Shown here: positions 31,534 through 49,280 of the stretch, piece by piece
Position numbering within the stretch: position 1 is the first letter of the stretch
How the letters are laid out: each line of letters begins with the position of its first letter
From: a virus
Virus record (IMG/VR): IMGVR_UViG_3300020034_000004
Span: 1 to 64,000 of that record
Length of the DNA: 64,000 nucleotides
Reading direction: 5' to 3' (one strand)
Notes under the pieces: generated by a model
Databases searched by the model: none
What the model saw: the letters and a program-made list of their open reading frames with translations, nothing else
Told to the model about the DNA's origin: nothing
Translations under genes and position numbers: made by a program

Positions 31534-32133
31534 ATGAACAAAGTTTTATCAACGGTCGTTGTTCTAGCTATGACCCTATCGGGTTGTGGAACAGCGGTAG
31601 ACAATAAAGAATCGTCTGCCACTCCTGAGGAACCTCCCTTATCTAAAGTTACATCCAGCGTGTCATCTAGAGATGTCAACAATAGGTCTGCGGACTTTCC
31701 TGTTTCACGAAGTGATAATAGACCGAGTCTTAGTTCTATTAAGTCAATTACAGCTAAACCAAAGCAAGTTAAGCTTAAGTCAACGAAGCCAGTTGTTAGG
31801 TCTAAGACACAAAAGTCAAAATATGTCGTTAAAACAAGGACCAAGACCAAATATCGTACCGTGAAAAAGCCAGTTAGGAGTTTTCGTCCTGTGCCGGTCG
31901 GAGGTATCGCAAGATGCATAGGCAAATATGAGTCAGGAAATAATCCCAAGGCTCAAAACCCTAGTAGCTCTGCTAGCGGTTACTTCCAGTTCACAGATGG
32001 TACTTGGAATAACTTCAAAGGATATGCTAGAGCTAAGTATGCTCCATTATCCGTTCAATTGAAGAAGTTCTATATCGTTTGGAATGGAGGCAAGGGAGCC
32101 TCTAATTGGACTGTATATCGCAAATGTATCTAA
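31534..32133 (+). CDS. Lipoprotein with Rpf/transglycosylase-like lysozyme domain
   Basis: Lipobox LSGC; basic linker; C...ESG.N....N..S.ASG.FQF...TW; AGGAGG RBS. Confidence 0.82.
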   Translation: MNKVLSTVVVLAMTLSGCGTAVDNKESSATPEEPPLSKVTSSVSSRDVNNRSADFPVSRSDNRPSLSSIKSITAKPKQVKLKSTKPVVRSKTQKSKYVVKTRTKTKYRTVKKPVRSFRPVPVGGIARCIGKYESGNNPKAQNPSSSASGYFQFTDGTWNNFKGYARAKYAPLSVQLKKFYIVWNGGKGASNWTVYRKCI

Positions 32134-32169
32134 TTTGACATAGTATGCGGTCCAATATATACTGTGGTT

Positions 32170-32697
32170 ATGGAAACTAAAATCACTAAATGTATACGAA
32201 TTGCATATTTGAAAGGCTATCGAGTTACTGATGATGGGACGCTTCTTGGAATACGTGGGCGTCCCATCACAACTATTTTAAAAAAGGGCTATCCTTTCTT
32301 TGCTCTACAGGTCGGAACAGAATACTCAAAGGATGGGTATTATAAAATTCCTGCTCATAGATTTGCTGCCTATTGTTTCTATGGTGAAGAGATTTTTAAT
32401 CATAGACTGGTTAGACATTTGAATGCAAATAAAAATGATTACAGTCGACAAAATCTAGCTCTTGGAAATCACAGTCAAAATTCATTCGATAGGCCAGCAG
32501 TAGAACGTAGTAATCATGCAAAAGCAAGTCATACAGTAACCAGAATATATCCATCAAAACAAAAAGTTTGTAAAATTGCCTATTGTAAATATTCACCTTG
32601 CGGTAAGGTTTTTGATATAACTAGAGATAATAGAAAAAATAGACCACGCAAACATTGTTCTTATAGCTGTGCTGCTAAGAACAGGAAGAAATCTTAG
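32170..32697 (+). CDS. HNH endonuclease (leaderless)
   Basis: AHRF...VRHLNANKND....NL..G..SQN; TTGACA-N17-TATACT-N6-ATG. Confidence 0.85.
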   Translation: METKITKCIRIAYLKGYRVTDDGTLLGIRGRPITTILKKGYPFFALQVGTEYSKDGYYKIPAHRFAAYCFYGEEIFNHRLVRHLNANKNDYSRQNLALGNHSQNSFDRPAVERSNHAKASHTVTRIYPSKQKVCKIAYCKYSPCGKVFDITRDNRKNRPRKHCSYSCAAKNRKKS

Positions 32698-32930
32698 GCA
32701 TCGGTGTGGGTTTTAATTCTCGCCTTGGTACTCACGATATAAATCTTGGGCTAAATTGTAACCATCCCAATTATCTACCCCGGCGTTCTCCAATGCTTGA
32801 AGCAAAATAGAACGTTTTTGAAGATTCTTATAATCATCAGTAGTAATTGTGATTGTATCATTTTTGTCTGACATAATATTCCTTTCAGTAAGAGAGCCGG
32901 TAGATTTAATTATCTACCAGCTTTTCCTTG

Positions 32931-33089
32931 TAGGGGTACTGGGAGTCGAACCCAGACAGACTATGCTCAATGGTCCTGCAGGAATCAAAGGTCAAATTCA
33001 AAGCGTGTTAACCCACTTCGATTGACAAGGTCCATAGCCCTTCTCTGACTTATCGGGGTCAGCGACTTTACCATTTTGTCCATACCCCC
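32931..33089 (-). ncRNA. tRNA-like RNA with 89-nt variable arm and 8-nt anticodon loop
   Basis: Intact acceptor GGGGGTA/TACCCCT, D-arm, CTGAC-CCCGATAA-GTCAG, T-arm CTGGG-TTCGACT-CCCAG. Confidence 0.8.
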
Positions 33090-33727
33090 AAGTGTAAGAC
33101 TTAACGAATCTTACATGAAGACTTATCGGTTGTCAATACCTCATCTGTACCCGACTATCTTTGGCGTCAACACGTTTGACTTTATCACTCTACCCAGAAA
33201 GCATGTAGCTGACCTGTACTACCTTGGTGGATACCAGTTAGTCGGCCCACAATCCTCACAACCTCTACAATATCGCAAAGGAATAACAATTTGGCCGATG
33301 ATAGACCAACCAATTACTAATGTTCTTCGACACCACTCATCGCCACCCAACCATGTTGGTGACCAGCGATGGAAATACCATTGTGGTTTATAAAACCATG
33401 GATGATTCTTTGGTTTAGTACCTTTCCAACATCCACAAGGTGCTTGCCACCATCTACTCATACTTAAACAGACTCTCAAATCCGTCTACCCACTTATGAT
33501 ACAACATTCCTGCGAAGAAATCAACACTTACGTTTGAACTAATGGCAAAGAGCGGGTAAGAATTTAAAGCATACACTTCATGCTCTAAAAGATAATCCTG
33601 AGCCATCAAATATGAAATTCTATAGATATTGCTTTCTGTCTTGTTATGAATAACGGAATACTTTCCAATACCGTCGCTCCATGCTTTATCGATGTGCTCT
33701 TCAAGCGTCATTACTTACCTTTCTGTG

Positions 33728-34102
33728 TGGAGTCGGGCGGATTCGAACCGCCGTGCTTCATTCTTCTAAATAAATCATTATACAGTCATTACTATTCATT
33801 GAGACTTTACAATTTGAAGGTGTCTGTGGAATAGCTCCCGCTACCTATAGCATTTTCTCCTGTGCCTTCAGGTTCAATTGTTATTAAATTGTAACTATTT
33901 TGGATTCGGACGGTATAGTTACCGTCCTAGCTAGTCTTTTATCAGACAGTTGCTAGGGAAGCAGAGCGTAGAATAGCCTCTGCCTCTGCGACAATGTTAT
34001 AATTATCTGCATTTATAGTTTGTTAGCTGTTTTAAGACTCTGCCAACTAAGTCTGACTGCGTATCTATTCTTCCAAACAAAGTCGAAACCAATTACGACC
34101 CC
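33728..34102 (-). ncRNA. ssrA: tmRNA
   Basis: GGGGTCGTAATTGGTTTCGAC 5' end, G3.U70, T-arm 3' end; tag ORF ADNYNIVAEAEAILRSASLATV then TGA TAA (34010-33942). Confidence 0.95.
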
Positions 34103-34223
34103 TTAAACAAGTTTTCTTTAAATCTATTTATTGCATTAACGGCATCTTCATACCTGTTGAATCTACCAAGATGTTTAGCTTTGCCATCTATAATTGTTTT
34201 CGCTCTCCAACATTGCCCACAAG
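34093..34223 (-). pseudogene. AP2-domain remnant of an HNH-AP2 endonuclease
   Basis: Startless frame WRAKTIIDGKAKHLGRFNRYEDAVNA. Confidence 0.6.
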
Positions 34224-34295
34224 TGCCCCTGCTGGGATTCGAACCCAGAATGCGAGTTTAGGAAACTCGAAGTTTATCCCTTAGCTTACAAAGGC
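34224..34295 (-). tRNA. tRNA-Arg(CCU)
   Basis: CGAGT-TT-CCT-AA-ACTCG. Confidence 0.92.
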
Positions 34296-34371
34296 TTACC
34301 GCCAGCATGTTGCTACCTGCACCGATTCGAACGGCCATGCTGACTGGGAGAGCGTATACACTCTCCGTAGC

Positions 34372-34668
34372 TCAAGAAGGAGTTACTAGACCAAACACAT
34401 TGGCTTTGTTAGTCCATCCATTTACATGTCCATGATTATTACTAATCTGAACTCTATCACCATCTACCGCCGAAATCAAGTGCAAATAAAATCTGCGGCC
34501 AATCTTGGCAAAGACAATGTCACCTTTAGATAGTACCCTGTCAACTGGTCTGATATCAACCGGCTGCCGACTATAAATGAGTGGTACCATTGAGTTACCG
34601 CCCTCTTTGTATTCTTTAATGGTTTCTCCTGCTAGGAGCCTCTGTACCATTAGTTCTTTGACGTTCAC
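34372..34668 (-). CDS. Peptidase S24/S26-like protein
   Basis: GNSM.P, GDIV, LH motif. Confidence 0.75.
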   Translation of the reverse strand: MNVKELMVQRLLAGETIKEYKEGGNSMVPLIYSRQPVDIRPVDRVLSKGDIVFAKIGRRFYLHLISAVDGDRVQISNNHGHVNGWTNKANVFGLVTPS

Positions 34669-34669
34669 G

Positions 34670-34744
34670 TGCCCTTGAAGGGATTCGAACCCTCATCATC
34701 CAATTACGGTCAAACTACTTAGGAGGTAGCGCCGGTACTCAGGT
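34670..34744 (-). tRNA. Atypical tRNA-Arg(CCU): no D-arm, D-like hairpin in variable region, degenerate acceptor
   Basis: GCTAC-CT-CCT-AA-GTAGT; CGT-AATTGG-ATG; canonical T-arm. Confidence 0.6.
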
Positions 34745-34875
34745 AAATTGGTGGACGGATAAGTTGGTAATTACTCCAACTAAGATTCTAGTTACCTATT
34801 ACACACGTTACTCCGGAGTGCCGCGTGCACTTACTTCCCCAATATCCTCACCTTTTACAGTTATTGGCCGTCCCG

Positions 34876-34942
34876 TGCCCCTAAGCGGAATTGCACCGCT
34901 AACTGTCGGATTCGGATTCTGACGGTCAATCTTTCTAAGGGC
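34876..34942 (-). tRNA. D-armless tRNA-Arg(CCG)-like
   Basis: GCCCTTA/TAGGGGC acceptor; TCAGA-AT-CCG-AA-TCCGA; AGCGG-TGCAATT-CCGCT. Confidence 0.6.
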
Positions 34943-34959
34943 AATTATTCTGTTATATC

Positions 34960-35424
34960 CTAATCTTTACGATGATATTCTTCTATGATTTCTTCATCTA
35001 TTGCATCTTCACGTCTGAATTGACTTAAAGAGAAATACTGCCAAATCCAGAATATTAGATTCGGTACCGCCACCGACAGTAGAACCAGCCACTCACCAGT
35101 AGCAATATAGCACGATGAAGCAAACAACCACAAGCAAGCACCGGCAAGACCAGATGCCTTACCAACGGGCGGTATATTGAACATCAAAAAAGTCAATCCA
35201 CATAGAATGGTAATAATTGCTATCGCTCCCCAAATAATTGGAAGAGAATTACCTAAACTACTCATAGCATTGAATAACGAAGAAGTACCCGCTATTTTAG
35301 TGAATGGTAGAATGAAAGCAAATCCAATACCATACGAAAAGGTAGATAACAAAAAGGGCCACATTAATGGATTAAATGTTTCACCTCTGGAGCTACTGGT
35401 TACTCTACTAAAGTACTTGTTCAT
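34960..35424 (-). CDS. 4-TM membrane protein (leaderless)
   Basis: Four hydrophobic helices; TGnTATAAT-N5-ATG. Confidence 0.72.
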   Translation of the reverse strand: MNKYFSRVTSSSRGETFNPLMWPFLLSTFSYGIGFAFILPFTKIAGTSSLFNAMSSLGNSLPIIWGAIAIITILCGLTFLMFNIPPVGKASGLAGACLWLFASSCYIATGEWLVLLSVAVPNLIFWIWQYFSLSQFRREDAIDEEIIEEYHRKD

Positions 35425-47660: not shown

Positions 47661-47751
47661 CGGAAGCGGGGTGGTTTCGAACCCCCAAGGGCCATAAGCC
47701 TCGCTCGCTTTCAAGGCGAGTGCCGTCGTCCAAAATTCGGCTTGCGCTTCC
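47661..47751 (-). tRNA. tRNA-Ser(UGA)
   Basis: CTCGC-CT-TGA-AA-GCGAG, long arm, G73. Confidence 0.88.
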
Positions 47752-47926: not shown

Positions 47927-48051
47927 TTGAGGATATGTTATAGAAATCGAGTTTTTAACGCTCTTCCATTAAGCTACAGACCGAAGTCCAGTGGGATTCG
48001 AACCCACATCTCTCTTTTGACATAAGATAATCGAATTCATTCGACCCTCAA
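47927..48051 (-). ncRNA. yrlA: Y RNA, YrlA type
   Basis: GAGGGTCGAATG...GATTATCT; T-arm GTGGG-TTCGAAT-CCCAC, TGGAC-TTCG-GTCTG, D-arm GCTT-AATGGAA-GAGC; AACATATCCTC. Confidence 0.9.
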
Positions 48052-48844: not shown

Positions 48845-49280
48845 TAGTGGCTAACGTCTTAACGGCTTTCACCGCTCCATCCACTGTTGTGAGCAACCTA
48901 CGCTATTGATAAATTTAGAATAAATCATCTACGTTGGCGATTAATCTGCTCTGAACTCACAAGTCACAAAGTAGAATCTGATTCCAAGGATTGGCTACCT
49001 CGTCGGCTACACGGTACCGTCAGACTATTAACTTTTCTCATCTACTAAGAATAAAGTGAGAGGAAGGGTGCTACCTTCACGCGGGGGGAGACCTTAGCAT
49101 GTAAGATTACCCCACGACCATTCGTTTGCCGCTAAGCACAGATTCAACAAGTCGCTAAACTTGCCTCCTAGTCTCACCGCATTAGCCTAACTAGGGTACT
49201 TCTGCCGAACGTGCATTACGAGCTACGTCTCCGACACTCGCATTTCTGCCACTCTCAGACGAAGGTGCTACCTTCGTCTT
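48845..49280 (-). ncRNA. Large structured ncRNA candidate between tRNA-Trp and tRNA-Pro
   Basis: No credible ORF; many helices; repeated GAAGG-TAGCA-C hairpins; tRNA-like 5' domain. Confidence 0.6.

Follow-up and report, generated by a model that had tools for sequence, protein, structure and literature searches.

The locus described here raises the question of why a phage should carry a gene that folds as a complete tRNA, has no readable anticodon, and holds 89 nt in the place of a variable arm. The gene, 159 nt in length, lies in the window that we analyzed, namely the first 64 kb (64,000 nucleotides) of a 97-kb IMG/VR soil-virus contig. The original prediction had placed a tRNA scaffold at 32931–33089 and had interpreted it as a noncoding RNA built on a tRNA chassis, possibly a frameshift-type tRNA, or as a tRNA with an excisable insert. 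In our assessment, there is about an even chance that the gene encodes a non-decoding, structured RNA that was derived from a tRNA-Leu and is processed like a tRNA.

Using cmscan on a 1.25-kb segment (32500–33750), we found that these coordinates are exact and that the gene lies on the minus strand. The match to the Rfam tRNA model (RF00005) scored 34.8 bits (E 3.1e-5) over model positions 1–71, against a gathering score of 29 bits, so that the cloverleaf exceeds the curated score for membership of this family when the 1.25 kb is scanned. The alignment contained a single long insertion (~89 bases) in the interval between the anticodon stem and the T stem, which is the variable-arm site. The gene was not called by ARAGORN in the window scan, and was missed by the filtered whole-window Rfam scan at the gathering threshold. 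In a relaxed Rfam scan of 32500–33750, the tmRNA model gave no match at E up to 10. The parts of the RNA are as follows.

32931–33089, minus strand: whole tRNA-shaped RNA gene, 159 nt (RF00005, 34.8 bits, model positions 1–71)
33083–33089, minus strand: 5′ strand of the acceptor stem, GGGGGUA (direct reading and RF00005 match)
33064–33080, minus strand: D arm, a 3-bp stem GAC/GUC with an 11-nt loop (direct reading and RF00005 match)
33045–33062, minus strand: anticodon-like arm, stem CUGAC/GUCAG with loop CCCGAUAA (direct reading)
32956–33044, minus strand: variable region (giant arm), 89 nt (cmscan insertion state and nested fold)
33033–33040, minus strand: 5′ strand of the arm-closing helix, GGGCUAUG, pairing with 32958–32965, CAUAGUCU
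32991–33026, minus strand: 13-bp hairpin inside the arm, with a 2-nt bulge (nested fold and reading)
32974–32983, minus strand: small hairpin UCC-UGCA-GGA in the arm (fold; weak support)
32939–32955, minus strand: T arm, CUGGG-UUCGACU-CCCAG (RF00005 match)
32931–32938, minus strand: 3′ strand of the acceptor stem, UACCCCU, and discriminator A (direct reading and RF00005 match)

Each helix that had been named beforehand, i.e., the acceptor stem, the Leu/Ser-like D arm, the anticodon stem, and the T arm, was present and intact on reading. The acceptor stem (GGGGGUA/UACCCCU) has 7 bp, including a G1·U72 pair, and is followed by a discriminator A; CCA is not encoded at the 3′ end. The D loop, AAAAUGGUAAA, contains the GG pair, and A14, A15, G18, G19, and A21 are present. 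The layout of this arm is that of a class II, Leu-type tRNA, and its loop closely resembles the D loops of phage tRNA-Leu. By reading, the positions of the tRNA core are canonical (U8, A14, G18–G19, A21, G26/A44, and the T loop UUCGACU), an A15:U48 pair is possible, and all 20 of the 20 chassis base pairs are intact. The thermodynamic support for the fold in the window strain is modest and its z-scores are unremarkable: the full 159-nt RNA gave a z-score of −1.92, and 8 of 200 shuffled sequences folded equally well.

The anticodon-like loop is CCCGAUAA, the 8-nt loop without U33 that had been predicted; its second position is not U, and no register supplies U33. In a sister strain, L024, the loop reads CCCGAUGG, which closes into a 7-bp stem with a CGAU tetraloop. 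The 7-nt loop, U33, and purine at position 37 of a functional decoder were found together in neither strain, and a Leu anticodon is absent from the RNA. When ARAGORN was run in intron mode at a lowered threshold, it proposed a tRNA-Ser(tga) with a 69-nt intron, which we rejected because its anticodon stem has U·U and A·C mismatches. We also observed a 10-nt direct repeat, CCGATAAGTC, on the minus strand, one copy of which is in the promoter spacer (33120–33129) and the other across the anticodon-like loop (33047–33056). The AA version of the loop equals the spacer copy 73 nt upstream, and L024 has GG for AA in the loop copy only; this double change may be a single templated event, in which case the closed hairpin would be the older state.

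The variable region occupies RNA positions 46–134 and departs from the body where class II arms emerge; as predicted, it is closed by a helix and contains a nested GTCAA/TTGAC hairpin. Variable regions have 4–5 nt in class I tRNAs and roughly 10–25 nt in class II tRNAs, and at 89 nt this one lies outside the range known for functional decoders. The closing helix (GGGCUAUG/CAUAGUCU) has 8 bp, two of which are G·U pairs. In the inner hairpin, GUCAA and UCGAAGUG pair with CGCUUUGA and UUGAC, with a 2-nt bulge, and the 8-nt loop, GGUUAACA, holds the palindrome GUUAAC. Loop–loop dimerization through GUUAAC was set aside as an idea only, given that a six-base palindrome occurs in an 8-nt loop ~5% of the time by chance. 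Folded alone, the arm of the window strain gave a z-score of −1.24. No second copy of the 89-nt insert was present in the 97-kb contig, and a repeated or mobile origin of this single-copy insert was therefore dropped.

To trace the body of the RNA, we combined both known copies and the proposed structure into a covariance model (R2), which scores 198 bits against itself. Over 24 other phage genomes or records, it detected ordinary tRNAs and other tRNA-like RNAs and no long homologue, and its best matches were annotated 82-nt class II tRNA-Leu(GAG) genes of Streptomyces BE-cluster phages: NootNoot, 39 bits (E 2.6e-8); Mildred21, 36.1 bits; and Birchlyn, 29.7 bits. These scores were reached despite the cost of deleting the entire arm. 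In its own genome, the best match was a tRNA-Leu(UAG), at 23.9 bits. The 3-bp D stem, the layout of the D loop, the position of the arm, and the discriminator A73 are those of a class II tRNA-Leu chassis. Like the tRNA-Leu(GAG) of Mildred21 and NootNoot, the RNA combines stems of 7 bp (acceptor), 3 bp (D), and 5 bp (anticodon) with U8-G9, a discriminator A, and an extra arm in the same place; the T loop UUCGACU is identical to theirs, and the D loop nearly so. In contrast, its arm is 89 nt and branched, whereas that of the phage tRNA-Leu(GAG) is ~14 nt, and the anticodon is replaced by an 8-nt loop without U33 or, in L024, by a tetraloop. Among cultured phages, the BE and BK phages are closest to this one, with rIIA ~31% identical; published abstracts give them genomes of ~130 kb with 39–48 tRNAs and one tmRNA. 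The gene order in Mildred21 is tmRNA, tRNA-Leu(GAG), Val(GAC)/Leu(CAA)/Ser(GCU), and rIIA, and the order here is tmRNA, the 159-nt RNA, Val(GAC)/Ser(GCU)/Leu genes, and rIIA. Based on the R2 scores, the agreement of the loops, U8-G9, and the discriminator, and the matching gene order, we infer that the RNA is plausibly a remodeled tRNA-Leu.

The RNA is flanked by a promoter on its 5′ side, and by a hairpin and a short protein-coding gene on its 3′ side.

33108–33136, minus strand: sigma-70-type promoter, TTGACA-17 nt-TAAGAT (promoter scan, 10 of 12 matches)
32897–32920, minus strand: 9-bp hairpin, 10 nt beyond the RNA; contains the over-represented genome word TACCGGC
32713–32874, minus strand: 53-aa gene for a T7 gp5.9-like RecBCD inhibitor (PF25708, E 9e-17; PHROG 6234)

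The RNA begins 19 nt beyond the end of the −10 element, and the candidate promoter is unchanged in L024. Across the contig, we counted 19 TTGACA-N17-TAnnnT sites on the minus strand against two on the plus strand, and the pattern also precedes the tRNA-Met with a similar short leader; this strand bias and the placement before bona fide tRNAs indicate a real promoter class. After the RNA come the 9-bp hairpin, a ribosome-binding site, and the gp5.9-like gene. The hairpin has no U tract on the minus strand, and one of its pairs, U·G here, is C-G in L024. The promoter scan showed no promoter-like site between the RNA and the gp5.9-like gene, and thus the two probably share a transcript. All the tRNA genes of the window are on the minus strand, at 24–50 kb, and the tmRNA is at 33727–34102.

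The sole relative that we found is the sister strain, which is 98–99% identical and comes from another soil sample (its contigs and the JGI contig L024). L024 retains all 159 bases, including the whole insert, and differs by four transitions. U90C converts the G71·U90 pair of the inner hairpin into G-C, C61U falls in a junction, and A39G and A40G add two C-G pairs to the anticodon-like stem. Three of the four substitutions therefore strengthen proposed helices (one G·U to G-C and two C·A to C-G), and none of the four breaks a proposed pair. The unconstrained minimum-energy fold of L024 is approximately the whole cloverleaf with the nested arm (z-score −2.48). Among random sets of four transitions, 1.2% stabilized the fold equally; in the opposite direction, with L024 as the ancestral state, the changes amount to a mild destabilization, which was equaled in 17.6% of the random sets. 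The region 32694–34019 diverges by ~2.5% throughout, the tmRNA included, and the four changes in the RNA correspond to this local background rate. The L024 changes thus appear to lend weak support to the structure, short of proving selection. The interpretation of the gene as a noncoding RNA on a tRNA chassis is strengthened by the intact core and four arms, by the class II insertion site, by the gene's own promoter, and by the retention of the RNA, with helix-compatible changes, in its sole relative. The homologue search with covariation that had been proposed as a check yielded one relative that keeps the arm; the covariation part fell short, the whole known set being two near-identical strains, a pair that permits no real covariation test of the arm.

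Searches for more distant relatives covered several databases. A blastn search of 32600–33750 against GenBank phages gave no match, and exact or gapped patterns for the arm, the T arm with the acceptor stem, the anticodon-like arm, and the D and T loops gave zero or chance matches in IMG/VR. A degenerate pattern of the D loop and the anticodon-like loop returned L024 plus 16 chance matches in JGI metagenomes, and 15 chance matches, in coding DNA, in representative genomes. When neighboring proteins served as anchors, the 154-aa protein had no relatives, and the 85-aa protein matched only itself among 5.8 billion protein clusters. The gp5.9-like protein led to two loci, one of which had a tRNA, only a tRNA-Tyr, and rIIA led to ten IMG/VR contigs (≤ 45% identity over the best segment) with no tRNAs nearby.

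Oversized tRNA-shaped RNAs of other kinds were found in the BE phages. In Mildred21, a 129-nt “tRNA-OTHER” (L036:11595–11723) lies downstream of the tmRNA and has its own TTGACA-N17 promoter. This RNA matched 61 BE-phage records (including Mildred21) at 80–100% identity, is unannotated under the match in all the listed records but two Mildred21 ones, and belongs to no Rfam family. Its consensus has 41 pairs, eight of them with compensatory changes, and consists of an acceptor stem, a T arm, and three inner helices. An 8-nt hairpin loop of this RNA contains a six-base palindrome whose sequence shifts between subgroups, from AUGCAU to AGCGCU, yet stays palindromic. A second type, of ~137 nt, occurs in Tomas (L050:436–572), Naboo (L049:437–573), and the NootNoot group (L043:7–142), and a 128-nt example in Bmoc (L072:1501–1628) has the same tRNA-like ends. 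In this type, the acceptor, D, and T arms surround a multi-helix center, one hairpin of which covaries and has a UGCA cap; in phages of the NootNoot type, this RNA lies directly upstream of the 129-nt RNA. Like the 159-nt RNA, the BE-phage RNAs have their own TTGACA-N17 promoter, a site downstream of the tmRNA, and a tRNA acceptor stem and T arm enclosing a large multi-helix interior, and they share with it a CUAUG/CAUAG-containing helix directly 5′ of the T arm and UGCA-capped hairpins. However, a covariance model (R1) that we built from 13 members of the 129-nt family gave the 159-nt RNA 5.7 bits with the filters off, confined to the T arm, which places it outside that family, and motifs that had seemed shared by eye (GACCUU after a helix, UUGAG...CAUAG before the T arm, and the UGCA hairpins) were not supported by this comparison. 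Moreover, unlike the 159-nt RNA, the 129-nt type lacks canonical D and anticodon arms, and reading of the ~137-nt type suggests that its extra domain stands in place of the anticodon loop, whereas that of the 159-nt RNA takes the place of the variable loop. These RNAs show that structural selection acts on oversized tRNA-shaped RNAs in the BE-phage group; by the same comparisons, they are analogues of the 159-nt RNA with no detectable homology to it.

If the RNA is a non-decoding derivative of tRNA-Leu, the following sequence of events can be proposed. Its own host-type promoter would drive the RNA, probably together with the gp5.9-like early gene. RNase P and the 3′ processing enzymes should then release a 159-nt L-shaped RNA, as expected from the intact acceptor stem, D arm, T arm, and core nucleotides. 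CCA would be added, as is needed by the other tRNA genes of this phage, which likewise do not encode it. The anticodon arm would be a plain hairpin, closed in L024 and loosened by two C·A mismatches in the window strain, and a plain hairpin makes codon reading impossible. The 89-nt arm would form a closed, branched domain able to serve as a separate binding surface, and our guess is that it carries a specific partner or function. As a tRNA mimic, the RNA may occupy or recruit a factor that recognizes the tRNA body and not the anticodon. The candidates are leucyl-tRNA synthetase, which in Escherichia coli does not need the anticodon, or a host defense enzyme that targets tRNAs. In favor of a non-decoding RNA, the conserved 129–137-nt RNAs that the BE relatives carry next to their tmRNA, with their compensatory changes, indicate that this phage group makes use of oversized tRNA-shaped RNAs.

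The same features could be left by a tRNA-Leu gene that is dying, having lost its anticodon and gained or expanded sequence in its variable-arm loop. In such a gene, the promoter and the tRNA-like processing sites would still serve the gp5.9-like gene, and the arm would have no function; we consider this explanation possible without being probable. The phage has four other Leu tRNAs (ARAGORN), so this copy would be dispensable for decoding, and since no other promoter-like site precedes the gp5.9-like gene, selection could act on the promoter alone. Nevertheless, the core nucleotides and every chassis pair have survived the loss of the anticodon. An insertion into an existing variable-arm loop is automatically closed by a helix, but the 8-bp closing helix and the 13-bp hairpin exceed the remnant of a variable-arm stem. 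The evidence from the sister strain is also divided: the substitution rate equals that of the neighborhood, and the changes fit random drift if L024 is ancestral, yet not one of the four differences disrupts a proposed pair. Finally, our searches of IMG/VR, GenBank phages, JGI metagenomes, and representative genomes turned up no distant homologue, while related phages keep oversized tRNA-shaped RNAs under clear structural selection.

The remaining explanations retain a role for the gene as a tRNA or assign it a different partner. The 89 nt might be removed and the halves rejoined, for example by the RNA ligase family protein that the phage encodes (PF09414), giving a tRNA of ~70 nt. Although the insert is cleanly closed by a helix, and although oversized tRNAs of Lak megaphages have been described as carrying “enigmatic introns” (Devoto et al., 2019; PMC6784885), we consider this very unlikely. 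Removal would still leave an 8-nt or closed loop without U33, and ARAGORN called the form trimmed of its arm in silico a tRNA-??? with a four-base anticodon, “cgat.” The insert is in the variable region, outside the anticodon loop, is present in the DNA of both strains, and is far shorter than group I introns. Furthermore, no intron or self-cleaving ribozyme family matched 32500–33750 at E up to 10 in the relaxed Rfam scan, no bulge–helix–bulge motif was seen at the insert junctions by reading, and neither a core or splice motif nor an intron-less allele was found, which leaves the excisable insert of the original prediction unsupported. The four-base call on the trimmed form and the 8-nt loop, CCCGAUAA, of the window strain would suit a quadruplet-decoding (+1 frameshift) tRNA. 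This we regard as the least credible explanation, because in L024 GG replaces AA and, by pairing with the two C residues on the 5′ side, shrinks the loop to 4 nt, no register offers U33, and a ribosomal substrate with a giant arm would be without precedent. A conserved 8-nt loop with a four-base anticodon after U33 was thus not found, and the comparison of the strains indicates that a loop that closes at 98–99% genome identity is not a four-base anticodon, whichever state is older; the frameshift-type tRNA is accordingly abandoned. It is also unlikely, if slightly less so than the excised insert, that the RNA is a Y-RNA-type partner of a phage Ro60, with the giant arm as the Ro-binding module. 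The genome does encode, ~12–15 kb upstream, both a (split) Ro60 (PHROG 850) and YrlA-like RNAs (RF02553, 28.9 bits at 47941–48037), but the 159-nt RNA gave no YrlA match (RF02553) at E up to 10, and where a Y RNA would pair its ends into a Ro-binding stem, this RNA has an acceptor stem. The Y RNAs of this phage share a GGGUCGAAUGAG...AACAUAUC motif that we did not see on reading the arm, and with neither this motif nor a YrlA match, a Ro60-binding site in the arm was dropped.

Returning to the non-decoding RNA derived from tRNA-Leu, we tentatively consider whether it represents a wide class of phage RNAs, so far undescribed, in which an intact tRNA chassis bears a giant functional arm and acts off the ribosome. 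In this class, which is possible and less than probable, the Leu body would be processed, CCA-tailed, and perhaps leucylated, and the RNA would act as a decoy for a tRNA-directed defense enzyme or synthetase, or as a carrier docked by its arm to a protein.

The RNA also differs from the other known systems with which we compared it. In 2017, Mukai et al. reportedly described allo-tRNAs and novel cloverleaf tRNAs with unusually long variable arms in bacteria and phages; these are said to have simple arms of ~20 nt or less, an 8/4 or 9/3 acceptor/T geometry, and functional anticodons. In contrast to these reported features, the 159-nt RNA has 7/5 geometry, a branched arm of 89 nt, and no anticodon. 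The tRNA-like domain of tmRNA and the YrlA-type Y RNAs, both encoded by this phage, are likewise non-decoding and reuse the tRNA elbow and/or the acceptor stem, and helix 2 of tmRNA projects from its tRNA-like domain the way that the variable arm of a class II tRNA does from the tRNA body. However, the 159-nt RNA keeps the complete cloverleaf, including the D stem and the anticodon-like arm, has neither a tag reading frame nor a Ro-binding stem, and matches neither family. Like the Lak megaphage tRNAs, it is larger than expected and has conserved extra sequence of obscure role, whereas the Lak inserts are predicted introns in the anticodon loop (tRNAscan with eukaryote settings), with assignable anticodons (PMC6784885). 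In the 159-nt RNA, the extra sequence forms the variable arm and there is no anticodon; the two are set apart here by description only.

If the RNA is made and stable, a complete cloverleaf can tolerate an arm several times longer than natural variable arms, and the phage has turned a leucine tRNA into a non-decoder. We know of no natural variable arm that approaches 89 nt. Such an RNA would be a natural example of a tRNA scaffold that presents a folded RNA domain, and it would bear on the role of large phage tRNA islands beyond codon supply and on phage counters to tRNA-directed host defenses. That ARAGORN and the filtered Rfam scan both missed the gene bears on the number of such genes that annotation may have overlooked.

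Several other features of the locus were observed. An HNH endonuclease gene (32114–32693, plus strand; ORF 32164–32697), with its own TTGACA-17-TATACT promoter, lies ~240 nt from the tRNA-like gene. It is cleanly missing in the 98–99% identical strain, in which 32113 is joined to 32694, and such a presence/absence polymorphism is typical of homing endonucleases of the free-standing kind. L024 also lacks 310 nt (33177–33486) that here separate the 85-aa ORF from the promoter of the 159-nt RNA, with 33176 joined to 33487, and their loss takes the last codons of the 85-aa ORF; neither an ORF nor an Rfam match in this stretch is convincing, and its fold gave a z-score of −1.94. The tmRNA (33727–34102, minus strand) differs between the strains at 10 of 376 positions, a rate like that of the surrounding non-coding DNA, and 34020–35080 has zero differences between the two strains, which suggests a recombination patch around the two indels. 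Elsewhere in the window, an 89-nt class II tRNA at 47662–47751 (minus strand), with the loop CUUGAAA (anticodon UGA, serine), is absent from the ARAGORN list; it scored 27 bits with RF00005 and, in the relaxed scan, 34.4 bits with the tRNA-Sec model. At 49053–49278 (minus strand), there is a sub-threshold match to the manA RNA motif (RF01745), which scored 42.1 bits (E 7e-9; cut-off, 55.2 bits).
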